From contig JAYEOV010000035.1 of NCBI GenBank assembly GCA_034723315.1, forward strand, positions 8,329 through 72,328: DNA of 64,000 bases, written 5' to 3'. The DNA comes from Candidatus Omnitrophota bacterium. Its GTDB lineage: Bacteria; Omnitrophota; Gorgyraeia; Tantalellales; Tantalellaceae. Below, piece after piece: positions 8,112-43,734 of the stretch. Below the pieces are notes generated by a model that saw only the letters and a program-made list of their open reading frames with translations, had not been told where the DNA came from and made no database searches. The position numbers and the translations under genes are program-made. The number at the start of each line of letters is the position of its first letter. The stretch's first letter is position 1.

Positions 8112-8831
8112 TTACGAAAACACGAAATATCTCCACACAAGAAACGCGGTGATCCCGTGAGAAAGGGCCGGACCCCATATATTGCCGAAATATTCATACA
8201 GATATCCCCAGATCGCTCCGGTTAAGGCTATGAGCCCCAGTAAAAAAAGCCCCTCTTTGAAAGGGATGATAAAGAATATGTAGAAATGCACCAGGCTGAA
8301 AAGGACCGCTGTTATCCATATTGAGGCGTTTTTTGGGAGAGCTTTTGAGATCTTCCTCTGGATGAATCCCCGCCAGAATATCTCCTCGCCCAATCCTACC
8401 AGAAAAATAGAAAAGATCAGGGACGAGAAGACCCATATTAGTTCATTCCCCGCTGTAAGAAGCCTGAACCCCAACTCCCCTTGAAAAGAGATCCTTAGGC
8501 CAAAAGATTGAAGAAAGTTGTTTATTTCACCCGCCCTGTCTATATGGTAGCACGTCATTCCCAGAGCCCTCAGGATAAATCCTCCGAAAAAAGCGATGAT
8601 GAGGCCGGTCAAGATGCCTGCGGTGATGGAAGGCCACAAAGATCTTCTTTTAAGGCCGAGAGAGCGCAGGCCTTCCCCTAGAATGCCGATTTGCCAGACC
8701 AGGGGGATGGAAAACGTAAAGGAAAAGGAGCCGTACACGCCGAAGGCCAGAAGCAAAAGGGGCGCGGCGATCGCCGCGATAGAGACAGCGAAACGGCCTG
8801 TTACAGGTATTTTATATCCGTGGTGTGTCAT
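8112..8831 (-). CDS. CPBP (CAAX/Abi) family intramembrane metalloprotease
   Basis: EEIFWRGF (EExxxR), FSLVHF (FxxxH) and ALSHG motifs in polytopic membrane protein. Confidence 0.7.
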   Translation of the reverse strand: MTHHGYKIPVTGRFAVSIAAIAAPLLLLAFGVYGSFSFTFSIPLVWQIGILGEGLRSLGLKRRSLWPSITAGILTGLIIAFFGGFILRALGMTCYHIDRAGEINNFLQSFGLRISFQGELGFRLLTAGNELIWVFSSLIFSIFLVGLGEEIFWRGFIQRKISKALPKNASIWITAVLFSLVHFYIFFIIPFKEGLFLLGLIALTGAIWGYLYEYFGNIWGPALSHGITAFLVWRYFVFS

Positions 8832-8973: not shown

Positions 8974-9204
8974 TCACCGCCGCCAGTATCCGGGGATCCA
9001 TACATATACCCTACATTTTCGTTTCCATTTCCAGTGCCCTGGCACCCAGACAGCCCTCCTGTAAGGGCATCGGGGACGGATCTCGATCTTAAGGGGAGGA
9101 GGATCGGGTCTGTCTTTTATGATAACCGTTTTTCTCGTAGTGCATCCGCTGGTAAGGACCGCGGCAAACAAGATCATTAAAACAGCAAAATGCCCCTTTT
9201 TCAT
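8974..9204 (-). CDS. Small lipoprotein with two W-x-PG-x-W repeats
   Basis: Lipobox LTSGC; VWVPGHWKWK / YVWIPGYWRR repeats; probable start at internal Met (MKKGHF). Track ORF 8974..9216. Confidence 0.4.
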   Translation of the reverse strand: MKKGHFAVLMILFAAVLTSGCTTRKTVIIKDRPDPPPLKIEIRPRCPYRRAVWVPGHWKWKRKCRVYVWIPGYWRR

Positions 9205-9641
9205 CAGAACCTCCATTTTTCAAGTTTTCTCGTAAGCTTCCTGTATTGCCGGGGGGTAAGGATCTCTTTTATCGCGAGCATCCCTTCTATCCGGACAAGC
9301 AGGATCTCCCCTTTTAACCTGGCAATCCTCCTCACAAGGGCGTCCACTTTCTCATGATCAACAGCATACCTTTTCATTTCTTCGCCCAGCGCTTCCATCC
9401 GGGCCTGAAGCTTGAGCGCCAGCTCTTTCAATATTCTTCTCTGCCTTCTTCGCTGCCTGTCGATCTGCCGTTCCTGTTTCGCGGCAAGGTCAAGTTCATC
9501 GAGGACGTCGTCTATCGTTTCCTCCTTTCTCTCCCATCCCTTGCTCTTTCCTTCGCAGGGATAAGCCCGGGCATCTACCGACGTAAGAAGCAGTGCGGCT
9601 ATCAGCATGGGGACTAATATTTTCGATCTTCTCATCTTCAT
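9204..9641 (-). CDS. Periplasmic LTXXQ-motif protein (Spy/CpxP family)
   Basis: Signal peptide MKMRRSKILVPMLIAALLL, coiled-coil, LTPRQ motif. Start is reassigned to ATG 9641 (good SD AGGAGG) because a sigmaE-type promoter lies inside the track ORF N-term (track ORF 9204..9698 uses a TTG). Confidence 0.6.
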   Translation of the reverse strand: MKMRRSKILVPMLIAALLLTSVDARAYPCEGKSKGWERKEETIDDVLDELDLAAKQERQIDRQRRRQRRILKELALKLQARMEALGEEMKRYAVDHEKVDALVRRIARLKGEILLVRIEGMLAIKEILTPRQYRKLTRKLEKWRF

Positions 9642-9663: not shown

Positions 9664-9693
9664 TTAGACAGAAGGAAAGGGAAAAAAAGTTCC
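9664..9693 (-). promoter_or_regulatory. ECF sigmaE-type promoter GGAACTT-N17-GTCTAA
   Basis: Minus-strand GGAACTTtttttcccttccttctGTCTAA about 20 nt upstream of SD/ATG of the LTXXQ gene. Same motif as at 32237 and 33335. Confidence 0.5.
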
Positions 9694-9768
9694 CGCAAAT
9701 TGAAGAATATCCAGGGATGGGTATGGGTTTGGTTTTGTAATTAGGTAATTAGGCCTGACACTTTATTA

Positions 9769-12700
9769 TTACGCGCAGATAGTTAGAATTGTATCCTGAA
9801 GATGATGTGTATCCTCGATATCATCCACGATCGGCGGGCAACTGTCAAAATCGGAGAAGAGCTTCTTGATGAGTTCTTCAAGGTTTTCATTTGTCGTGTT
9901 AATGATAATGTCGAATCGTTCGCCCGAAGTCAACCGTTCTTTAAGCTCGTCCGCGTCTCTGGCAGTGACGATATCACCTTTGAATCCTATAACCTTGAGT
10001 TTTCTTATCCCTTCTTCAAAATCGCTTCCATATACCAGGGCCACCTTATTGGCCGAGGCTATCTGCAGTTCCAGGGCTTTCTCATTTCTGGGAAGACTCA
10101 CTTTTAACGCTTCTTTTATATGACAAAATTTTTCATCCATGCGCATCGTTTTCGACATTATCCCTGAGATCAGGCCTTCATCTTCCAGCTGCACAAACCG
10201 TTCATCACCTACCGCATGGCCGGTGGAAATAAGGATCGGGAACTTATGGCCTCTTTCCCGGACTTTTTTCGTCAATATCAAGCCGTCAATAATATCACTT
10301 CCCCTGGCCGGCGGCATGCTCACGTCAAATATGGCAAGGTGGAACTTTAACCCCGCTTTTTCCGCCTCTTCTATCAGATCAAAGGCTTCCTGACCATTCA
10401 CGGCCAGCCAGACATTACAGCCTTCCTCCTCAAGCATGCTTTTAAACTGGTCTCTCTGGAGAAGCTCATCGTCAGCAACGATAATATTCGGCCTGTCTTT
10501 TACGATCTCCTCCGGCTTCCCGTGCAATTCTTCTTCTTCTTCTTCCATCTTAACCGGGACTCGTCTTTTACCCGGCTCAGCTTCCGCCTGCCGCAGATAA
10601 GGAATAAACATCCTGACCGCGGAACCGTCCTTCTCATTGTCAACCGTTATCCTTCCGGCAAGATACGTCAGTATCCTGTGAGCAAGCGCCAGTGAAATAT
10701 TTTTATTTTTCTCCCATTTAAGAACTTCTGCTCCCTTTTCCCCGGCTCCGAGCTCTACCCTTTCCAACTGGCTCTCAGTAAACCGGCAGTAATTATTTCT
10801 GAAAGAAACAATTACTTCTCCGCTTCTTCTGTTACGCTCGAGTTTTATGCTTAATCGTTTTTCCTGCGGATCCAGTCCCTCAACCGGGACCTCGTTAGTT
10901 TCCATCCCAAGGGTCAGGATGTTATATAATGCGAATTTAAAGGCCGCTTCGTCGGCCATGATGAAAATATCCTCTTCCGGCCGGTATAATGTCTCGACTT
11001 CATCAAAGGTGATCGTATATTGCGGGAAAAACCTTTTTGATTTCTTGAATGCAGACGCGATATCCTTAAGGACTTTTGCCACTTCTACCTGCCCCGGCTT
11101 TTTCTCAAAGCTGTCTCCTGCCGGCAGCAGAAGGCGCCCGTCGTCGATTCTTTCTTGTGTCGTGTGGAAACCTGTATATATCTTCTCAATATATTGCCTT
11201 AACTTTTCATTATCAGATCCGGCTGTTTCTTTTATAAGCTTTTCAATCGACGACAACATACCTACCATATTTATCTCTATGATCCTGAGCGTTTCAGCCG
11301 GGGCAACATTTTTTAACATAGCCTGCACCTGCCTTACCGACTCTGCCAAACGAGGCTCATGTAAAGCGGTATCCAGGTCAATATCTTTCATTATGTTCTC
11401 TACCTGTTCCATCAGGTTTTTCACTTTAATGGCCAGGACCGGATCAACGCTCTCCATTGCGGTCTGCATTTGTTTTACCAGGATCATCGCATCTTTAGCC
11501 TGGAGAAGATCAGTCGGGTCCTTGAGGATAATTGTCGGTATATTCTGCATCATCCTTATCATGTTTACTGCCTCATCCATCTGTCCGCTGATCAATTTGC
11601 ACTTTGCCAGGATATCCTCAGGCAGGTCCGGCATAAAAGTCATTATCAATTCAAGATAACCTCTACTTCCGGCTATCGCGTTGTTAAGGTCATGCCACAA
11701 GCTGCCGTATATGTTGTCCTGCGCTTCAGACGCACGGAGTTTTATCCTGTCCAGTCGACGTTCAACCAGAGGGAATTCCATTGTAAATGTCGTCCCGTGC
11801 CCTAACTGACTTTTCGCTTCCGCTGTGCCGTTATGCTCCTGGGCGACATCCCTGACGACAACAAGCCCAAGGCCGGTCCCCATACCGTCATCCCTTTTCG
11901 TATAAAAGGGTTCCCAGATATTTTGCAGGTCTTTTGCCGTGATCCCGCATCCTGTATCTCTAAAAGATACACGCATTACGTCCCTGCCTTTCTCATCCTT
12001 TGTTTTTTCCGTACCGAGAGTCAATTCCTTTGTCTTCGAGTCTCTCATAAACGATACAGCATTCATGATAATGTTAAGGAAAGCCTGTCTTAACCTGCTT
12101 CTATTGGCAATGACCACCTGCCGGTGTTCGCTTAATTCCAGTTTTACCGTTATACCCATACTCTCTATCATTGTCTTTCTCATCTCCAGGACATCCAGCA
12201 GGACTTCTTCGACGGAACAGGGGAGGTTCCCCAAATCCGGCGATCTCGCGAAGCCCAGAAACCTGTCCGTGATATCGGCAATACGCTCTGCTTCCTGTTC
12301 AATAATCGCCAGCGTCCGGATAATCTCTTCCTCTTCCACAAATCCCCCTTTGTACAGGCGGGTGAGGATCCCGTCAACAATATTAATTATGTTAGACGTG
12401 GGATTGTTTATCTCGTGAGTCAGCGCCGCTGTGTTTTCTCCGATCGCTGTAAGCCTTTCAGCCTGGACCAGGAGCGCTGTCTTTTCCTCCAATTTCGCAT
12501 AGGCGTTCTTCAGGGCGTTTTCAGCCTGTCTCCGCTTTGTAATATCCTGCATCTGCACTAAAAAACCAGACGGAACGCCGTTTTCCACGGCCAGGGGCGT
12601 TACCCTGTAATCTATGAAGACCCTCCCTGACTTTGCCTCTCCGGACAATCCGGCTTTTTTAGGCTTATCAAAATCAATTTCGTTTTCGAAGCTGATACAT

Positions 12701-15405
12701 TCTCCTTTACGAACCCTGTCTTTTTCCGTACCTATGATAATATCAAGAAAATCGAAGAGATTTAATACTTCTCTTTCTTTCCCAAAATCGGCAATGCCGT
12801 TTTCTTCTAAATACGCTCTGTCTACATATAGAAACGCCTTGTTCACATAGGTCAAGCGGCCGTCAGAATCAAAACGGGCGATCCCGATCGGCGATTCTTC
12901 GGAAATTTCCCTGAATTTCTGCTCGCTCTCCCTCAACGCTATCGCCGCGTCTCTGCGCTCTTCTTCCCGTGTAACCGCTTCCGCAAGGATCCCGAAAAGT
13001 TTCATATCACTATCATCAAGTTCAACACTTTCCTTGTATAGCACACAGAGGCTTCCAACGCGCTGCCCGGCGCTATATACCGGAAATCCGATATAGGTCC
13101 TGAACCCGTACTTCGCCACATTGGGATCGGTTTTGGAATAAGCGGTCTCTTTTACATTTCTAACAATATAAGGAAGCCCTCTAAGGCCTTTTTTGATAAC
13201 ATCATAACAGATATGGCCATCCGGTTTATCAACCGGATTATAGTCAGGTGGAGTCTCCCACTGACCTACCGAGCATAACATGCCGCCTTCCATCCTGTTA
13301 TACAAAGCACAGTCTCCGTTTAAAAATTCCCCGCAGGTCCTGGTAAGTATTTGAATATTCTCGTCATAATCGGTCCCGAGCCTGAGAAGTGCGTCATTCA
13401 GCATTAAAATACGTTCTTCTGCCAGCTTGAGCTCTGTGATGTCGCTACCCACACACAGGATCCCGGAGATGTTCCCCTTGGCATCAAAAATCGGCTTATT
13501 GGTCCATGCGATGTAGACCAGTTCGCCATCCTTACGCAAATTTGCGGTCACGTTATTGACATAATACTCGGGGTATTTTCTTATATTCAGGATCATTTCC
13601 TCGAGGTCCTGTCTGGATTTTTTTGTTTCAGGCATGATCGTGCCGATCATATTCCGGCCGAGCAATTCTTTCTCCGAATAGCCCAGAAACATCCGGGTGA
13701 ACTCATTCGCGAAAGTAATTTCTCCGTTCAAGTTCATCCTCAAAATAATGCTGTTGGCGTTCTGGACCAGATCGCGGTATTTAAGTTCACTTTCCCTGAG
13801 CCTTTCTTCCGCCTGCCTACGTGCCATCCCTCTTGAAATAATATCGCCTGCCACACGGAGGATCCTCGCGTCTTTATCACACCAATCGCGGTGCTTTTCT
13901 GTGTCTTCAATACCCATATATCCGACAAGTTCTCCATCTATCGAATACAGAGGCACAATAATAAGAGAAAAAACATTCTGATCCCGCATACTCTCCTTTT
14001 CCGCGGTCGCATCCTCCGGAAGATCATCGGTGCCCCGAATAATTATGTTTTCATTGTTCCTGAGTTTTTTCATCAACCACGGGTATATGGAAGAAACCTG
14101 ATCCTTACGGTTCTCTATCTGCGGTTCTGTATCCGGATCGCACCACTCATATGTGTTATCCATTATGCTGCCGTTTTCCCGGAAGCGAAAAATATACGCC
14201 CTATTCACGTCGACCGCTCTCCCTATAATTTTGAGGATCTGATCAAGGTCAGGGATGGGGCCTTCAACGAACATACTTGATACCTGCGCAAGAGCTTTCT
14301 CTATGTCAAGACGATATGTTAATTCTTCCTCAACCTGACGCTGATCGGCAGAATAGTCTCTGGTGGTTATTTTTTCGGTAAGATCGATAAATTCCGAGAC
14401 CCTGGCCTCATTGAGCAGATTCATCTCTCTTCCTGTCAGGTTCATCTCAGAAGGGAAAGTGCCGGGAAGGTCTATTTTTCTATCGCTAAAGCATTGAACA
14501 AAACGCTTGAATATATCCTGGAACAGGTTAGACTCCTCGTGTGTAAACCCGGCTTTTGCGAATATTTCATGAACAATTGTATCGGCATTTAAATATACCA
14601 GTTCATTTGGAAGATAAATGCCGCGGCCGCCCGCATGCGGCTCTTCTAACCTGTATTCCTTCCTCGTCTCAGTGATGAGCATAAGCTGGCTAATGCTGAC
14701 AAGTTCCCTGAAGTCTCTGGAAAGCCCGGTAGATACAATATCAAGGAACGCGTAAATACAGGAAAGGGGAAGGCCATAATTTTTCTCTGTTACAATCATA
14801 CACTTGCCGGCAAGTATGGCTTCCCGGATCTTCTCGTCATGTTTTTTTTCGCTCTCCGCAGCCATGGATATCGCGCGACCTTCCAGTCTTTCGGCATACT
14901 TTAACTGTTGGAGCTTTTCGAGAAGATCCTTTTGATTTTTTTCACGTTGCGTCAAAAACGTGATCTTATATTGAGGATCCGTACCGGGACTATCGGTTAT
15001 ACAACACCAGTAATCAGCCACCCTTTCTACTGTTCCAAATGTACACGGAACCAGGCGTAATCCAGCTTTTTTGCAATTGACCGCCCGGCTGAAATAAAAC
15101 CTTATCCTAATGTCTTCTATGTTGAAATTTATGCCCAATGATGAAGCGGAGTGGTCGCCCCATTCATTCATTACGTCTATTTTTTTATTACGCATACCTG
15201 AAACAAGGACATATTCGAGTAACGCGATATCTTTGATCTCCTTGTTAAGCAAGGGAAGAAATATGGATTGCGGCGCTATGTTTCTACCAGCAAATCTCAT
15301 GGCATAAGCCGGACTTACGCTTGTTGAAGTAATCAATAATAAAACCGTAATTATTATACTGGTTGCCTTTATTATTAAGCTATTTTTTCTTTTAAACAAT
15401 ATCAT
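9769..15405 (-). CDS. Giant hybrid sensor histidine kinase (1878 aa): N-terminal unknown domain, GAF-PAS-GAF-PAS, HisKA+HATPase, second HisKA-like+HATPase, receiver, C-terminal pseudo-receiver-like domain
   Basis: H-box THEINNPTSNI; G-boxes DTGCGI...GTGLGLVVV; second H-box SLWHDLNNAIAGSRGYLEL and second ATPase-like core; REC domain IIVADDELL...FDVSMPP... Confidence 0.85.
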   Translation of the reverse strand: MILFKRKNSLIIKATSIIITVLLLITSTSVSPAYAMRFAGRNIAPQSIFLPLLNKEIKDIALLEYVLVSGMRNKKIDVMNEWGDHSASSLGINFNIEDIRIRFYFSRAVNCKKAGLRLVPCTFGTVERVADYWCCITDSPGTDPQYKITFLTQREKNQKDLLEKLQQLKYAERLEGRAISMAAESEKKHDEKIREAILAGKCMIVTEKNYGLPLSCIYAFLDIVSTGLSRDFRELVSISQLMLITETRKEYRLEEPHAGGRGIYLPNELVYLNADTIVHEIFAKAGFTHEESNLFQDIFKRFVQCFSDRKIDLPGTFPSEMNLTGREMNLLNEARVSEFIDLTEKITTRDYSADQRQVEEELTYRLDIEKALAQVSSMFVEGPIPDLDQILKIIGRAVDVNRAYIFRFRENGSIMDNTYEWCDPDTEPQIENRKDQVSSIYPWLMKKLRNNENIIIRGTDDLPEDATAEKESMRDQNVFSLIIVPLYSIDGELVGYMGIEDTEKHRDWCDKDARILRVAGDIISRGMARRQAEERLRESELKYRDLVQNANSIILRMNLNGEITFANEFTRMFLGYSEKELLGRNMIGTIMPETKKSRQDLEEMILNIRKYPEYYVNNVTANLRKDGELVYIAWTNKPIFDAKGNISGILCVGSDITELKLAEERILMLNDALLRLGTDYDENIQILTRTCGEFLNGDCALYNRMEGGMLCSVGQWETPPDYNPVDKPDGHICYDVIKKGLRGLPYIVRNVKETAYSKTDPNVAKYGFRTYIGFPVYSAGQRVGSLCVLYKESVELDDSDMKLFGILAEAVTREEERRDAAIALRESEQKFREISEESPIGIARFDSDGRLTYVNKAFLYVDRAYLEENGIADFGKEREVLNLFDFLDIIIGTEKDRVRKGECISFENEIDFDKPKKAGLSGEAKSGRVFIDYRVTPLAVENGVPSGFLVQMQDITKRRQAENALKNAYAKLEEKTALLVQAERLTAIGENTAALTHEINNPTSNIINIVDGILTRLYKGGFVEEEEIIRTLAIIEQEAERIADITDRFLGFARSPDLGNLPCSVEEVLLDVLEMRKTMIESMGITVKLELSEHRQVVIANRSRLRQAFLNIIMNAVSFMRDSKTKELTLGTEKTKDEKGRDVMRVSFRDTGCGITAKDLQNIWEPFYTKRDDGMGTGLGLVVVRDVAQEHNGTAEAKSQLGHGTTFTMEFPLVERRLDRIKLRASEAQDNIYGSLWHDLNNAIAGSRGYLELIMTFMPDLPEDILAKCKLISGQMDEAVNMIRMMQNIPTIILKDPTDLLQAKDAMILVKQMQTAMESVDPVLAIKVKNLMEQVENIMKDIDLDTALHEPRLAESVRQVQAMLKNVAPAETLRIIEINMVGMLSSIEKLIKETAGSDNEKLRQYIEKIYTGFHTTQERIDDGRLLLPAGDSFEKKPGQVEVAKVLKDIASAFKKSKRFFPQYTITFDEVETLYRPEEDIFIMADEAAFKFALYNILTLGMETNEVPVEGLDPQEKRLSIKLERNRRSGEVIVSFRNNYCRFTESQLERVELGAGEKGAEVLKWEKNKNISLALAHRILTYLAGRITVDNEKDGSAVRMFIPYLRQAEAEPGKRRVPVKMEEEEEELHGKPEEIVKDRPNIIVADDELLQRDQFKSMLEEEGCNVWLAVNGQEAFDLIEEAEKAGLKFHLAIFDVSMPPARGSDIIDGLILTKKVRERGHKFPILISTGHAVGDERFVQLEDEGLISGIMSKTMRMDEKFCHIKEALKVSLPRNEKALELQIASANKVALVYGSDFEEGIRKLKVIGFKGDIVTARDADELKERLTSGERFDIIINTTNENLEELIKKLFSDFDSCPPIVDDIEDTHHLQDTILTICA

Positions 15406-15863
15406 GTTTTCCGAATTCTTCCCTTCTTTTTACCGTATTTCAATACTAGATTTTTTAGAATAATAAGTTATTTGCCTTTTTTTTGTGCTAACTCTAATAT
15501 ATTATCATAATTATTTTAAAAGTCAACAAAAATATTTACATATAGTGTATTTGTAAAAAATGAAATATTTAGCATGTTTAGGAGTAAAACTGCGGATATT
15601 TATCTAACTCAGTACTTCAGAAATATTAACAAGGAAAATATTGGAAGTTCAAAAAAACACATATTTATCTCATAACTTCTTTATTGCCCGATATTTAGGT
15701 TCGTAAGCCGCACTGAGGCATTCTTTGACAGACTGAAATCCTTGATCAAATGAAACAGCTATCTGAAGAAATGAAACTCGTCAATGCAAAGCTTTAAAAG
15801 TGGATTAGAATTACGGCCGCATTATAACTTTTTTATTAATAAAAATTGTTAACCTCGAATTGT

Positions 15864-15891
15864 TTGTTATGCTTGTACTAGGTGGGATTTG
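15864..15891. repeat. 28-bp direct repeat (left copy) TTGTTATGCTTGTAnnnnnnGGGATTTG
   Basis: 22/28 identity with 18478..18505; the right copy overlaps the 3' end of the amidase gene. Confidence 0.4.
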
Positions 15892-16181
15892 CATTATTGA
15901 ACACTCTCAAATTGGTCCAAAACTTTATGCAAAACGCGGAAGTCGGGTTAACAATCTCTTACCGTAATGAAGTAATGTTAAATTTACAATAGATAGAATA
16001 ATCCCCTTGTATATTAATAATGTTAAGGTATAGTTAATATGTTGATATTAAATGTATTTGGCTTTGTAATTTTTTACAAATTTATTAAAGGTTTGCTTAG
16101 AAGAAGAAAACAGCCTTGAAGATTTATTTTTTGGTTTTTAAAAAGTTTTTGAAAATGCCGAAACTAAAAAGGCGAATTACG

Positions 16182-17420
16182 ATGAACAAAACAAGAACAA
16201 AGAACAATGGGTTTGCCATGGCGGTCATGGCAGTAATGGTTGTCCTGGTCATGGCATGGGTGGTGATCATAACGCCTGTCCCGCGAGCGCATGCCGACGA
16301 ATGGGTAACGCGGCAAATATCGGATAATACGTATATTGACGCCGAGCCATCTCTTTATAACGGCACCATAGCCTGGGTGCACCATATACCCGCGGGAGAC
16401 TGGCAGCAACGTCATATCTACTACTGGGACGGGACCTCAACCACGCAGATAACGCCGTATGAGAAGTCGACCTACGAAGAGCCATCTCTTTATAACGGCA
16501 AGATAGCTTGGAGGGATGGTTATGTCTACTACTGGGACGGGACCTCAACCACGCAGATGCCGATTCCGGGGGGTGGTCAGCACTCCCCGTCACTTTATAA
16601 CGGCAAGATAGCCTACATTGTCGGAGGCGGTGTATTTGATGTCCACTACTGGGACGGGGGTACGGCTACAAATATATCTAATAATACGGCTGGTACTTGG
16701 TCCGGGTCCCCATCACTTTATAACGGCACCATAGCCTGGCAAACCTGGCAGGATGGTGGTTACGGTATCAACTACTGGGACGGGGGTACGACTACACAGA
16801 TATCCGTTAGTGGCGCCAACCCGTCACTTTATAACGGGACGATAGCCTGGGCGGACAATGGTATCAACTACTGGGACGGGGGTACGACTACACAGATATC
16901 CGTTAGTGGCGCCAACCCGTCACTTTATAACGGGACGATAGCCTGGGCGGGCAATGGTATCAACTACTGGGACGGGGGTACGACTACACAGATATCAGGC
17001 AGTGGCACCAACCCGTCACTTTATAACGGCGATATAACCTGGCAAGGCTCGGATGGTAATGATGATGAGATCTTTTACGCGCGGCTGGCGTCGGCGTGGA
17101 TAGGTGACGCGATAGACTCACTCGGCCTGGCAGGATACACAGAAGCGGAGATACTTGATCTTGCGGACCTGTTCAGTGGTCAGACTTCCGGTCTGGTAAA
17201 CAGCATGGACTGGACATACCTGGCAGGGAACCTTCCGGGAGATACAGGGGGCGAGGTCTATGACATAGGAAACAGCTGGGAATATGACGGTAAATACTAT
17301 ATCAAGCTGGGGAGCGGGCTTGAAGGAACCGGAGTACCTGAGCTGCCGGCAGGCGCGATACCGTTTATCGGTGCGATCTTGTGTTTTGGATTAAGACGGT
17401 TAAGACGTTTTCACAAATAA
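16182..17420 (+). CDS. Tandem-repeat secreted protein with variant PEP-CTERM-like sorting tail
   Basis: Signal peptide; ~9 repeats of PSLYNG[TK]IAW...YWDG[TG]TTTQI; C-terminus VPELPAGAIPFIGAILCFGLRRLRR (PEL-P + TM + basic cluster). Start at the internal Met (MNKTRTKNNGFAMAVMAV) instead of track 16116. Confidence 0.6.
   Translation: MNKTRTKNNGFAMAVMAVMVVLVMAWVVIITPVPRAHADEWVTRQISDNTYIDAEPSLYNGTIAWVHHIPAGDWQQRHIYYWDGTSTTQITPYEKSTYEEPSLYNGKIAWRDGYVYYWDGTSTTQMPIPGGGQHSPSLYNGKIAYIVGGGVFDVHYWDGGTATNISNNTAGTWSGSPSLYNGTIAWQTWQDGGYGINYWDGGTTTQISVSGANPSLYNGTIAWADNGINYWDGGTTTQISVSGANPSLYNGTIAWAGNGINYWDGGTTTQISGSGTNPSLYNGDITWQGSDGNDDEIFYARLASAWIGDAIDSLGLAGYTEAEILDLADLFSGQTSGLVNSMDWTYLAGNLPGDTGGEVYDIGNSWEYDGKYYIKLGSGLEGTGVPELPAGAIPFIGAILCFGLRRLRRFHK
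16764..17045 (+). repeat. 3 x 96-bp near-identical tandem DNA repeats inside the repeat-protein gene
   Basis: Units 16764..16859 and 16860..16955 differ at ~1 position; the third unit is diverged. Confidence 0.7.
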
Positions 17421-31609: not shown

Positions 31610-32110
31610 TTAGAACCTTTCCCTGAACCTTCCCCAGTGAGATTTCCGGCCGTGATCGCGCCGGTGGTGTTTTCTTTCCTCTTTGAGTTCCATGAACTCC
31701 TCGAACTGATCGGGGGTCAAGATCTTTTTCATGTCCAGGAAGTTATCCACCCTTTGATCTATCTGTTTCGCCTGCAGCTTTTTCATGTCGGATACGACCC
31801 TTTTTATTTTTTTTCTGCTGGAGTAGGTTTCCTGCAGCTCTTCGCTGAGATCATGGCGTGTATCTCTCAGTTCTTCCATCAGAGCTTTCATCATTTCCCT
31901 GTTCTCCCGGCGGAGTTCTTTGAGCTGTTCTCTTTGTTTTGGGGACAGGTCAAGCCTTTCCGATATCTTGTCGAATATCTCCGATCTTCGAGCGTTCATT
32001 CCTTCCGGACCGTCCCCGCCATAGGATGGTTGCGAATATGCCGCCGGAGCCGCGCACAGAACCGTGATCACAGCCAGGATGACCGACAATTTCAATACCG
32101 TGTTCTTCAT
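31610..32110 (-). CDS. Periplasmic LTXXQ-motif protein (Spy/CpxP family)
   Basis: Signal peptide, coiled-coil, LTPDQ motif; paralogue of 9204..9641. Confidence 0.6.
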   Translation of the reverse strand: MKNTVLKLSVILAVITVLCAAPAAYSQPSYGGDGPEGMNARRSEIFDKISERLDLSPKQREQLKELRRENREMMKALMEELRDTRHDLSEELQETYSSRKKIKRVVSDMKKLQAKQIDQRVDNFLDMKKILTPDQFEEFMELKEERKHHRRDHGRKSHWGRFRERF

Positions 32111-32236
32111 TTTTTCCTCCTTCTTTTTGTCTTTCTCAATTCTGTCCCTTCACTGCTGGATCCCCGCTTCCGCGGGGATTAAATTCGCATTATGATTTAC
32201 TCTCATTTCAATCGCGTAAATCATGTGCTCATTTAA

Positions 32237-32265
32237 CTTAGACAGAAGGAGATCCAAAATAGTTC
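32237..32265 (-). promoter_or_regulatory. ECF sigmaE-type promoter GGAACTA-N16-GTCTAA
   Basis: Minus strand GGAACTAttttggatctccttctGTCTAA upstream of the LTXXQ gene 31610..32110. Confidence 0.5.
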
Positions 32266-32271
32266 CCTCTA

Positions 32272-32287
32272 TGAACCCATTTCATAA
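32272..32287. repeat. Solo MITE terminal inverted repeat (GAACCCATTTCATAAC)
   Basis: Identical to the left TIR of the element family; overlaps the stop codon of the anti-sigma gene. Confidence 0.45.
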
Positions 32288-32767
32288 CAAAAAATCCTCC
32301 ATCGGGATGCCTATATCCGTATAAGAGCCGTTCTCCCGGTCCCCGTTGTTTAGCGCGTCAATGAATGAGAGCTGTTCCTCAAGATACATGTTAAGCGAGG
32401 CCCTGTCGAAGAGGTACGTCCTGGCGACTAATGCCGCTATAACGATAAGTATGGATGCCGTCAGCACGGCGAACGCGGGTTTTCTCTCAGCAAGGATCTC
32501 CCGGAGGCGCTCTCTTAAACCGGAGAGCGGGCTCTCGGGCCGGTTCGCCTCAATGACGCCTTTTATGCCGTGCCAGGTCTCTTCAGGGGGCTGCAGGCGC
32601 TCCGCTCTCTTCAGTGGATCCACGGCTGCGTCACGGACGATCTGCAGCAACTCCCCGCAACGGGGACACGACCTTATGTGGTCTTCGACGACCTTCCTCT
32701 GACCGGGATCAAGTTCTCCGTCTATGTAGTCTGTCAGGATCATTTTCCGTATTTTTCCGCATTTCAT
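32282..32767 (-). CDS. Zinc-finger (zf-HC2) anti-sigma factor, membrane-spanning
   Basis: HIRSCPRCGELL motif near N-term, single TM helix, 4-nt overlap with the upstream ECF sigma gene. Confidence 0.6.
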   Translation of the reverse strand: MKCGKIRKMILTDYIDGELDPGQRKVVEDHIRSCPRCGELLQIVRDAAVDPLKRAERLQPPEETWHGIKGVIEANRPESPLSGLRERLREILAERKPAFAVLTASILIVIAALVARTYLFDRASLNMYLEEQLSFIDALNNGDRENGSYTDIGIPMEDFLL

Positions 32768-32769
32768 GG

Positions 32770-33318
32770 CTACCCCCTTTTCCGGTATCGGGAGATAAGT
32801 TTTTCACGGGCTCTCTTGAGCCTGGTCCTTACCGTATTTATCTTTATGTTAAGGGTCTCGGCGATCTCTTCATACTTCAACCCCTCGATCTCTTTCAGTA
32901 CCAGACATGCTCTCTGCTCGTCGGGCAGGCTGTTCAGCATGGACCTTACAAGATCCTGGCTGTGTTCTTTTTCAAGCAGGTCCGTTCCGGTTTCTTGAAC
33001 GGGTCCGGCGTCTATCGCGTCATCGAAAGCGACCGTTCTCGCGCGCTCTTTTGACCTTTTCCTGTATACGTTGATCGCCTTGTTCGTGGTTATCCTGTAT
33101 ATCCAGGTCTTGAAAGAGGACTTGAACCGGAATTTCGAGAGGTTCCTGTAAACGCTCACGAAAACGTCCTGGGTAACTTCCTGAGCGTCCTCCCTTCTGC
33201 CTGTAACCCTGAAAGCTATTGTATATACGTAGCCGGAGGCCCTTCTGTATATCTCTTCAAAAGCGTGCATATCGCCTTCAGACGCTTTTATTATTATTTC
33301 CTCTGGTATCGGCTGCAT
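32770..33318 (-). CDS. ECF (sigma-24/sigmaE-like) RNA polymerase sigma factor
   Basis: Region 2 (DMHAFEEIYRR...YVYTIAFRVTG) and region 4 HTH (YEEIAETLNIKINTVRTRL). Start is reassigned to the internal ATG because the promoter -10 lies inside the track ORF N-term (track 32770..33351). Confidence 0.8.
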   Translation of the reverse strand: MQPIPEEIIIKASEGDMHAFEEIYRRASGYVYTIAFRVTGRREDAQEVTQDVFVSVYRNLSKFRFKSSFKTWIYRITTNKAINVYRKRSKERARTVAFDDAIDAGPVQETGTDLLEKEHSQDLVRSMLNSLPDEQRACLVLKEIEGLKYEEIAETLNIKINTVRTRLKRAREKLISRYRKRG

Positions 33319-33334
33319 TTTCCCCTCTATTATA

Positions 33335-33363
33335 TTAGACAAAGGGAGCATCGAAAAAGTTCC
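33335..33363 (-). promoter_or_regulatory. Autoregulatory ECF sigmaE-type promoter GGAACTT-N16-GTCTAA
   Basis: Minus strand GGGAACTTtttcgatgctccctttGTCTAAtataatagaggggaaaATG; classic sigmaE spacing. Confidence 0.55.
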
Positions 33364-42656: not shown

Positions 42657-42838
42657 AACCCCGTTCGTTACGAGGCTGAGCGAAAAAAGCATTGACAAGG
42701 CCTGAGGGGTGGAGCCCCGCGGACTGAAGTCCACGGCTCCTTTTTCTGCGGGATCTCACCTGTAGGGCGAAATCCCGAAAACGCAGCCAATGGGTTTTGC
42801 AGCCAGCCGCAGTAAAACAGGGTTATGAAATGGGTTCT
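42657..42838 (+). mobile_element. MITE-like element copy (left TIR missing, right TIR intact)
   Basis: Core CCCCGTTCGTTACGAGGCTGAGCGAAAAAAGCATTGACAAGGCCTGAGG, GC-rich hairpin insert, right end TTTTGCAGCCAGCCGCAGTAAAACAGGGTTATGAAATGGGTTCT. Confidence 0.55.
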
Positions 42839-43069
42839 AAAGAAGAACTGGAGAATATCTTTGACAAGCACAAAAAACTTTACACGGCTAAAGAAAAACT
42901 GGGGCCTGGACTTGCGATCATACAGGATATTGTGAACATGCACAAAGGAAAAATCTGGGCCGAAAGCAACCCCAAGAAAGGTAACAGGTTTATTGTAGAA
43001 CTCCCCAAAAACATAGCATCAAAAAGCTGCGCCCTTAAGTGGATTCACTCCTCGTCGTCCACTTTATAA
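42830..43069 (+). pseudogene. Sensor histidine kinase C-terminal fragment (HATPase_c G2 box only)
   Basis: ...ELENIFDKHKKLYTAKEKLGPGLAIIQDIVNMHKGKIWAESNPKKGNRFIVELPKN; begins exactly at the ATG within the MITE right TIR; the rest of the kinase is absent. Confidence 0.5.
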
Positions 43070-43734
43070 CCGATGCCTCTCACGTTCTTGATAAGCTTGC
43101 TCGTCTTACCGAGTTTCTCCCGCAGATGTCGTATATGGACGTCAATGGTGCGTGTTATCACCACTTTCTCTTCACCCCACAGGTAATCCAGGATCCTGTC
43201 CCGCGTGAAAACCTGTCCTTTCCTTGAACAGAGCAATTCCAATATCTTAAATTCCGTAGGGGTAAGAGCTACTTTCTTTCCTTCGGCTGTTACCTGATAT
43301 TTCTGTTGATCTATTACCAGCAAATCACTTATATTGATCACTTTAGGCTTTTCTTCCGGTTCCAGCCTTCTCAGGACCGCCTTTATCCTTGCCCCCATCT
43401 CTTTCAATGAAAAAGGTTTAACTATATAGTCGTCGGCTCCGATCTCAAGGCCCAGGACCTTGTTGGTCTCCTCGTCCCTGCCTGAAAGGATTATGATGGG
43501 TATAGTGGAAAGTTCCTCCTTAACCTTCAATAACCTGCATATCTCAAAACCGTCCATTTCGGGCAGCATCAGGTCAAGGATAATAAGATCGGGTTTTTTT
43601 GTTTCCAGGAAATTGAACAGGCTATGTCCTTCCAGAAATCCTTTGACCTTGAACCCCTCGTCGGTAAGATATTCCGTCACCATATTTACTATAGCGTGTT
43701 CGTCATCCACTATAACTATCAGTTTTTTGTCCAT
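43045..43734 (-). CDS. OmpR-family DNA-binding response regulator
   Basis: REC domain (DDEH...DLIILDLMLP), winged-helix C-terminus (VFTRDRILDYLWG...). Confidence 0.85.
   Translation of the reverse strand: MDKKLIVIVDDEHAIVNMVTEYLTDEGFKVKGFLEGHSLFNFLETKKPDLIILDLMLPEMDGFEICRLLKVKEELSTIPIIILSGRDEETNKVLGLEIGADDYIVKPFSLKEMGARIKAVLRRLEPEEKPKVINISDLLVIDQQKYQVTAEGKKVALTPTEFKILELLCSRKGQVFTRDRILDYLWGEEKVVITRTIDVHIRHLREKLGKTSKLIKNVRGIGYKVDDEE

Follow-up and report, generated by a model that had tools for sequence, protein, structure and literature searches.

In multi-step phosphorelays, the second histidine is normally carried by a small histidine phosphotransfer (HPt) domain, and the few known carriers derived from histidine kinases (HKs), namely Spo0B of Bacillus, ChpT of Caulobacter, and PhyT of Sphingomonas, are separate proteins. 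These three shuttle phosphate between receivers, and they combine a histidine-bearing hairpin with a Bergerat or catalytic and ATP-binding (CA) type domain that is blind to ATP. In ChpT, for example, a four-helix bundle is joined to an atypical Bergerat fold to which ATP is not bound (PMC3433190), and PhyT, Spo0B, and ChpT have been described as degenerated kinases (PMC5898713). Here, the same pairing of a hairpin and an apparently ATP-blind domain is described within a single gene of a Candidatus Omnitrophota bacterium, located in a stretch of 64,000 nucleotides (the window; GCA_034723315.1, contig JAYEOV010000035.1, positions 8,329 to 72,328). The gene (9769..15405, minus strand) encodes a multi-sensor hybrid histidine kinase of 1878 amino acids plus a stop in an uninterrupted frame, and its second kinase-like core is a candidate built-in phosphotransferase, predicted from its sequence anatomy.

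The closest described systems each share a part of this architecture. Compared to Spo0B, ChpT, and PhyT, the module of the window protein is fused within a hybrid kinase, between a live CA domain and a receiver, and in its family a helical insert of 0-200 residues separates the hairpin from the pseudo-CA domain. It also has no detectable sequence similarity to the solved chains of ChpT and Spo0B. One relative (P0131, 288 aa) is free-standing, as are ChpT, Spo0B, and PhyT. With the hybrid kinases of the ArcB, TorS, CckA, and LuxQ type, the protein shares PAS/GAF sensors, the HisKA/HATPase_c core, and, on the C-terminal side, an intermediary-type receiver. In those kinases, however, a monomeric four-helix HPt domain follows the receiver, whereas in the window protein a kinase-derived pseudo-core precedes it. 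DivL and the pseudo-HK region of RcsD are likewise described as placing a kinase-core fold in a non-kinase role within two-component networks. DivL has lost its histidine (replaced by Tyr) and kept its CA domain, while the second core described here has the opposite pattern, with the histidine kept and the ATP motifs lost. Moreover, DivL and RcsD are separate proteins rather than a second core in cis. In a full-text literature search of incomplete coverage, no description of tandem kinase cores or of a fused ChpT-like module was found.

Domain layout and the second core

Pfam scans of the whole protein and of its pieces recovered a GAF-PAS-GAF-PAS-HisKA-HATPase_c series and a Response_reg domain, and the domain order given by an earlier reading of the sequence alone (the original prediction) was essentially right. 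All of the protein's features lie on the minus strand. The sensory region includes a GAF domain (13834..14247, residues 387-524; PF01590), a PAS domain (13438..13782, residues 542-656; PF00989/PF13426), a second GAF domain of the GAF_2 type (12973..13371, residues 679-811; PF13185), and a PAS-like domain (12511..12918, residues ~830-965), which was delimited by a PAS_8 match from residue 830 together with the alignment and forms the start of the block conserved family-wide. The first core is composed of a dimerization and histidine phosphotransfer domain (DHp1, HisKA; 12226..12474, residues 978-1060), where the phospho-acceptor H997 is found in H-E-I-N-N, and a canonical HATPase_c domain (CA1; 11758..12222, residues 1062-1216), which contains N1115, the G1 box D1150-TGCG, an F-box-like WEPFYT, and the G2 box GTGLGL. 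The motifs named in the original prediction (THEINNP, DTGCGI, and GTGLGL) are all present. HisKA matched residues 990-1055 with 37.6 bits (cut-off 26.9), HATPase_c matched residues 1101-1213 with 92.6 bits (cut-off 26.4), and Response_reg matched residues 1641-1756 with 44 bits (cut-off 30.2). In NCBIfam, partial matches to AtoS, CckA, ArcB, and TorS covered the kinase core only and were far under the family cut-offs, and no HPt domain was detected by Pfam in the whole protein or its unexplained pieces. Judged by these features, core 1 is that of a HisKA-type (class I) hybrid sensor kinase and a predicted autokinase.

The second core consists of a DHp-like helical hairpin (DHp2; 11530..11730, residues 1226-1292) with H1238 in W-H-D-L-N-N, a helical insert of variable length (11095..11529, residues 1293-1437), and a HATPase_c-derived pseudo-ATPase (pCA2; 10594..11094, residues 1438-1604), the last identified through hhalign, a motif table, and the alpha/beta sandwich of an AlphaFold2 (AF2) model. 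When residues 1221-1640 were scanned alone, Pfam gave sub-threshold scores for HisKA (19.9 bits) and for HATPase_c (16.6 bits, profile positions 3-109 of 111). Local hhalign comparisons of the family alignments matched DHp2 to DHp1 with a probability of 93% (E = 3e-7), where H1238 fell on H997, and pCA2 to CA1 with a probability of 98.6% (E = 7e-15) over 146 columns. The predicted second H-box, SLWHDLNN, is thus real and belongs to a hairpin homologous to DHp1.

In the alignment of pCA2 with CA1, T1498 occupies the position of the Mg-binding N-box asparagine (N1115), FRDTGCGI of G1 becomes FRNNYCRF, and GTGLGL of G2 becomes KNISLAL. Among 22 pCA2 sequences compared in the motif table, G1 was swapped for (R/K/x)NNYxxF in all, G2 was gone from each sequence that covers its site, and the N-box site was occupied by a residue other than Asn in all relatives except one. 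These relatives also conserve the motifs that took over, (R/K)NNYxxF and SxxLAxA, which argues that pCA2 is, by its sequence, a conserved pseudo-ATPase, neither a decaying relic nor a second kinase core. Of the claim that the protein has two tandem kinase cores, the duplicated kinase-core fold therefore stands, but the second CA domain lacks the ATP-binding motifs. The original prediction had also named a generic linker or a degenerate domain as what might be found instead; the region is indeed degenerate, but it is no linker, being conserved together with its histidine.

An AF2 model of residues 975-1878 (904 aa) was built from an eight-sequence alignment, with a predicted local distance difference test (pLDDT) score of 75 and a predicted template-modeling score of 0.64. 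The modeled order was the DHp1 hairpin, an alpha/beta CA1 domain, a second long hairpin, the insert, the pCA2 sandwich, the receiver, and the tail, and a DHp-like hairpin and an alpha/beta sandwich were thus obtained for the second core. The second hairpin is formed by model helices 244-283 and 289-313, where the histidine is model residue 264, and the insert had a pLDDT of 52-59 over model residues ~310-400 and of ~80-87 beyond. The insert varies in length from 0 to 200 residues in the family; P0001 and P0005 nearly lack it, and P0002 and P0003 have a longer version.

The receiver (10120..10500, residues 1636-1762) contains D1644-D1645, the acceptor D1694, T1728, and K1752, and its catalytic quintet is complete except for the aromatic switch at K-3. 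The switch position was aliphatic or Cys in 16 of 17 receivers, and the DD, D, T/S, and K residues were kept across the family in the motif table. The missing aromatic switch fits an intermediary receiver as found in hybrid kinases (PMC9981736). Additionally, the beta4 motif xSTGH recalls the FxSGY of the CckA intermediary receiver (PMC9981736), a likeness that is only suggestive.

Conservation differs between the two cores. W-H-D-x-N was invariant in the eight-sequence core alignment, and the histidine was retained by each of the 15 relatives with a DHp2 hairpin, over sequence identities of 18-56%. H1238 sits in the HisKA motif H-E/D-x-x-T/N, with N at +4 in 14 of 15 sequences; within this motif, the acidic position is kinase-specific and the T/N position is phosphatase-specific (PMC3510030). 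In the first core, the histidine was lost in three of 14 sequences (D in P0001 and P0002, N in P0003), and CA1 showed decay in the form of a missing N-box Asn in P0003, a missing G1 box in P0004, and a damaged G2 box in P0002. Since the DHp2 histidine is kept while the first-core histidine is lost or CA1 decayed, H1238 and D1694 appear as the conserved heart of the protein, and the strongest constraint in the family, as read from the alignments, is on H1238, pCA2, and D1694 rather than on the ATP-using core.

Distribution and modularity

A search of 5.8 billion protein clusters identified eight close relatives (P0001-P0008), where every member with a source name was labelled Omnitrophota. In BLAST comparisons, these proteins had in common the N-terminal ~350 residues and the block 816-1878, and the PAS/GAF region between them varied. 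An exhaustive HMMER search with a profile of the second core (profile A1, residues 1221-1625) against 1.84 billion representative proteins yielded 67 matches at E<=1e-3 and 16 carriers at E<=1e-10. Each of the 16 carriers bearing a taxonomic label was from Omnitrophota, and the weak end of the match list was composed of ordinary kinases caught on their DHp or G2 region. The closest relative, P0122, shares 53-56% identity, and the window protein itself was absent from the contig index. The order of core 1, DHp2, pCA2, and receiver (REC), with or without the tail, recurred, at identities of 30-56%, on at least 12 contigs that came independently from ENA, JGI, and NCBI (P0001-P0008, P0122, P0123, P0126, and P0128), and the CA1-DHp2 junction was conserved across the relatives in the alignment. 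The search that the original prediction had proposed for the same dual-core architecture thus recovered it repeatedly, in Omnitrophota wherever a label was available.

Several modular arrangements were defined from a mapping of family hidden Markov models (HMMs) and from the sequences themselves. P0131 is a free-standing, ChpT-sized protein of DHp2 and pCA2 (288 aa). P0125 consists of half an N-terminal domain followed by DHp2 (RHDLNN), pCA2, and REC, with no kinase core. In P0132, an HK core is followed by REC (1178-1281), a long helical region, DHp2 (H1725), pCA2, and the tail, which is the classical relay order His-Asp-His. Two further relatives keep pCA2, REC, and the tail: P0133, where DHp2 is lost, and P0129, where an Asn occupies the position of the DHp2 histidine. 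At the other extreme of size, P0123, P0124, and P0126 (3196-5293 aa) contain the HK1-DHp2-pCA2-REC block within giant proteins. By these arrangements, the DHp2-pCA2 pair behaves as an independent module. Between the recognizable modules of P0123 (4431 aa) and P0126 (3196 aa), copies of a short motif, R-S-E-(V/I/L/M)-R, appear many times (for example, ARSEVRG, PRSEMRV, SRSELRV, and QPRSEVRS), and this motif could represent processing sites, module junctions, or read-through gene fusions. In addition, two family members occur in tandem at loci L003/L008 (GCA_014728075.1, contig WJMG01000092.1), where P0004 (2082 aa) has a full pseudo-core and a 1696-aa paralogue directly downstream has the N-terminal domain and no pseudo-core; the C-terminus of this paralogue, and hence any tail, is cut by the contig end.

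The proposed phosphotransfer route and its alternatives

The reading proposed here, to which a probability of about 0.5 is assigned, is that the protein is a hybrid kinase with several sensors and contains, as a built-in part, a phosphotransferase of the Spo0B/ChpT kind that derives from a kinase. The GAF and PAS sensors would control the HisKA/HATPase_c core (H997 and CA1), and DHp2 together with pCA2 would act in the manner of the dimeric phosphotransferases Spo0B, ChpT, and PhyT. Phosphate would pass from ATP to H997, to D1694, to H1238, and then to a terminal response regulator outside the protein, and the exchange between D1694 and H1238 may be reversible. On the comparisons above, four points are regarded as established: both halves of the second core are homologous to a kinase core, its ATP motifs are lost, H1238 and D1694 are kept across the family, and DHp2-pCA2 behaves as a module; the order and direction of phosphotransfer and the external acceptor are what we infer.

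If this proposal is true, a kinase core was duplicated in cis and one copy was turned into a built-in phosphotransferase, which would provide a snapshot of a possible origin of Spo0B/ChpT-like proteins. The finding of the second core would be no surprise in principle to specialists of two-component systems, and it bears on the rise of HK-derived phosphotransferases. The natural series of relatives, which includes members without the first histidine, members with a decayed CA1, a stand-alone module, and a module placed after the receiver, makes the phosphate route directly testable.

Several observations weigh against the proposed phosphotransferase. No response regulator or HPt gene adjoins the kinase, and the only other receiver open reading frame (ORF) in the window (43045-43734, minus strand) is ~28 kb away. 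A short fragment matching a CA domain (42728-43066, plus strand) adjoins that ORF; it is possibly a remnant, or else an artefact of overlapping frames. A DHp2-pCA2 profile searched against PDB sequences (E<=10) found only coiled-coil or designed proteins and no relation to ChpT or Spo0B, and therefore the analogy to these proteins rests on convergent degeneration. The 904-aa model likewise matched only canonical kinases in a Foldseek search of the PDB (HK853, WalK, LvrB, DivL, and KinB); these matches probably align to core 1 and are uninformative on the second core, so that of the structural check suggested for this region the hairpin and the sandwich were obtained and an informative fold match was not. 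Moreover, DHp2 directly follows CA1 (within ~20 residues) in 12 of 15 members, an arrangement that would equally suit a direct transfer from CA1 to H1238, and the retention of pCA2, REC, and tail in P0133 and P0129 implies that pCA2 must have a role independent of H1238.

The topology of the protein adds a further difficulty. A Kyte-Doolittle scan placed a signal peptide- or anchor-like segment at residues 10-35 (15301..15378), which is kept in homologues, and the only hydrophobic stretch in the kinase is at residues 10-28 (Kyte-Doolittle 2.1). It is preceded by a Lys/Arg-rich n-region and followed by SPAYA, a pattern that is kept in the relatives, and these features resemble those of a Sec signal peptide or of an N-in anchor. 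A conventional, positive-inside reading would, paradoxically, place ATP-dependent domains with a total of ~1800 residues on the non-cytoplasmic side. Similarly implausible extracellular predictions were reported in a preprint on the giant proteins of Omnitrophota, where HATPase_c and GGDEF were among the commonest domains (10.1101/2023.11.21.568195). The window protein shares this topology paradox with those giants, and the HK1-DHp2-pCA2-REC block also occurs in its relatives of 3196-5293 aa. It differs in being far smaller and in having one hydrophobic segment and no SecA-like domain. Its cytoplasmic-type, nucleotide-dependent domains behind an apparent export signal sharpen this puzzle of the phylum.

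Among the alternatives, it is possible, though somewhat unlikely, that DHp2-pCA2 passes no phosphate onward and is instead a regulatory pseudo-kinase or a dedicated phosphatase. The module would then either dephosphorylate the receiver through the Asn of H-D-x-x-N, or read the state of the receiver and feed back on core 1 in a manner like that of DivL and RcsD. The T/N position needed for HisKA phosphatase activity is kept, with the N at +4 mentioned above (PMC3510030), and the histidine-independent role of pCA2 implied by P0133 and P0129, as well as the lack of a terminal regulator encoded nearby, would agree with such a function. Pseudo-kinases that sense the state of a response regulator are also known, as is reported for DivL (PMC4211667). 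In contrast, the histidine is kept in 15 of 15 hairpins over 18-56% identity, though phosphatase activity needs none, and the stand-alone P0131 and the HK-REC-DHp2 order of P0132 resemble components of a relay.

A kinase of reverse order, in which CA1 phosphorylates H1238 in cis or across the dimer as a second or main autophosphorylation site, is judged improbable. In that case, the main task of DHp1 would be to dimerize and to transmit the signal, with pCA2 left as a remnant of structural or regulatory use. The short distance from CA1 to DHp2 in 12 of 15 members fits this arrangement, as does P0001, which is without the DHp1 histidine and yet keeps the CA1 Asn, G1, and most of G2; in addition, the acidic residue beside the histidine, which is needed for the HisKA autokinase reaction (PMC3510030), is invariant in DHp2. 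However, the other members without the first histidine show decay of CA1 (the N-box Asn of P0003 and the G2 box of P0002), which points to a loss of kinase function and not to a switch of acceptor. Moreover, P0125 and P0131 contain DHp2-pCA2 with no CA1 at all, P0132 has the pair at a long distance from CA1, and the literature search turned up no kinase with an acceptor hairpin after its CA domain. A related arrangement, where a CA-then-DHp unit forms the active core, the DHp1 histidine is optional (as in P0001), and the dead second CA domain is a docking platform for the receiver, is similarly doubtful; the same search found no description of this topology for histidine kinases.

Finally, a chimeric misassembly or a sequencing-error fusion of two adjacent kinase genes, a possibility raised by the original prediction, has a negligible probability: an unusually long gene with a duplicated fold is all that hints at it, and against it stand the uninterrupted frame, an even composition (GC content of 0.45-0.48 along the gene), the conserved CA1-DHp2 junction itself, and the recurrence of the same order on at least 12 independent contigs from different projects, by which the misassembly is excluded.

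Terminal domains and genomic neighborhood

Besides the kinase modules, the protein includes two terminal regions that appear, by their sequences, to be new family-specific domains. The N-domain (14341..15300, residues 36-355) shared 36-54% identity among 11 sequences, with the invariant motifs SEKxHDEKIRxAI, PHAGGxGIYLP (H257), HE(I/V)FAKAG (H279 and E280), E291, and RDYS at the domain end (349-352). No match was found in Pfam (also when residues 1-385 were scanned alone), in NCBIfam, or, with a profile, among PDB sequences. An uncharacterized N-terminal domain had been predicted at a length of ~430 aa; its lack of a recognizable relative was borne out, and its span is shorter, at ~320 aa. An AF2 model of the domain reached a pLDDT of 80, and a Foldseek search with it returned weak fold matches, with nothing below an E value of 0.26. 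The residues H279-E280-I-F-A were compared with the HEXXH motif, and the second His was missing in 11 of 11 sequences. H257 and E291 as substitute metal ligands are a conjecture, and a zincin-like N-domain is only a lead.

The C-terminal tail (9772..10092, residues 1772-1878, ~107 aa) was modeled by AF2 as a compact domain of four beta-alpha units, mostly with a pLDDT above 80, and 12 of 15 complete sequences end in -CA (-ICA in the window protein, 9772-9777). The suggestion that it is a pseudo-receiver of ~130 aa was rejected: the hhalign probability against the family REC was 1%, there was no Response_reg match even at E 10, and neither Pfam (also when residues 1757-1878 were scanned alone) nor NCBIfam gave a meaningful match for the tail. 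A tail profile matched among PDB sequences only idealized de-novo TIM barrels, which reflects a generic beta-alpha pattern and not homology. A gene of the Rce1-like CPBP ("CAAX protease") family is located two genes downstream of the kinase (8112-8831, minus strand); the C-terminal Cys of the kinase is at position -2, which does not correspond to a CAAX box.

The two terminal domains extend beyond proteins with the pseudo-core. A scan for the N-domain in 185,579 species genomes (GTDB representatives, which do not include the genome of the window) identified eight loci: six in Omnitrophota genomes assembled from metagenomes or single cells (Ca. Omnitrophus magneticus among them), one in a bin labelled Planctomycetia, and one in an unclassified bacterial bin. 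The middles between N-domain and tail included PAS-HK-REC (L006), PAS only (L007), two full HisKA/HATPase_c cores with REC (L009), and GGDEF with PAS (L010). A stand-alone tail protein of 138 aa (P0182) adjoins an unrelated large kinase, and the intergenic region ahead of its gene (5700-6000 of L014) contains several direct repeats with a unit of ~20-30 bases (…ACACCCGTCCCT… / …CAAAGCTACACCTGTCCC…). Word-indexed profile searches with the N-domain and the tail added one new protein each, and these counts are lower bounds. Since the regions enclosed by the N-domain and the tail differ so much, the two domains seem to define, at the level of sequence, a broader Omnitrophota signaling family, where the pseudo-core is one insert among several that can replace each other. 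As both domains also flank non-kinase cores, their role is probably in localization or partner binding. The two would thus represent new Omnitrophota-specific domains that frame kinase, GGDEF, and PAS-only proteins.

On its upstream side, the kinase gene is separated by a 710-bp AT-rich intergenic region (15406-16115, GC ~0.33) from a divergent ORF of 434 aa (16116-17420, plus strand), which has no Pfam match. Directly downstream is a gene of the LTXXQ/Metal_resist (Spy/CpxP-like) family (9204..9641, minus strand), which has its own signal peptide and a probable ATG start at 9641 after the ribosome binding site AAAGGAGG. Upstream of it is a promoter motif of the extracytoplasmic function (ECF)/sigmaE type, GGAACTT-N16-GTCTAA (9664..9693, minus strand). 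With its 13 specified bases and the same spacing, this motif occurred twice in the window, where 0 occurrences were expected and none was found in 100 shuffles. The second copy (33335-33363, minus strand) is immediately upstream of an operon of three genes: one for an ECF sigma factor at about 32770-33317, one for an anti-sigma factor of the zf-HC2 type at 32282-32767, and the second LTXXQ/Metal_resist gene at 31610-32110 (31610-33363 with the motif, minus strand). By these sequence features, the arrangement resembles an ECF regulon under its own control that has at least two LTXXQ genes among its targets, and the sigmaE-type promoter that had been predicted for the downstream gene is well supported.

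The proposed tie between the kinase and an envelope-stress circuit was not supported: flanks were compared for five homologous loci (L001-L004 and L013, the last with ~0.9 kb of downstream sequence only), and none of them has the LTXXQ gene beside the kinase. Across these five loci, no conserved neighbor or cognate regulator was found, and the ECF motif was missing from L001-L004. Upstream, prfB-secA-lnt was present in L001 and L003 and secA-lnt in L004, where the contig starts inside secA, and the downstream genes varied. ECF sigma/anti-sigma pairs were found near L001 and L004, which is at most weak circumstantial support for a link between the kinase and envelope stress. In the window, the -35 element of the ECF promoter coincides in part with a weak hairpin (GGGAA-CTTTTT-TTCCC; 9679-9694, minus strand), after which comes a T-rich run, and this hairpin could also serve to terminate transcription of the kinase gene.

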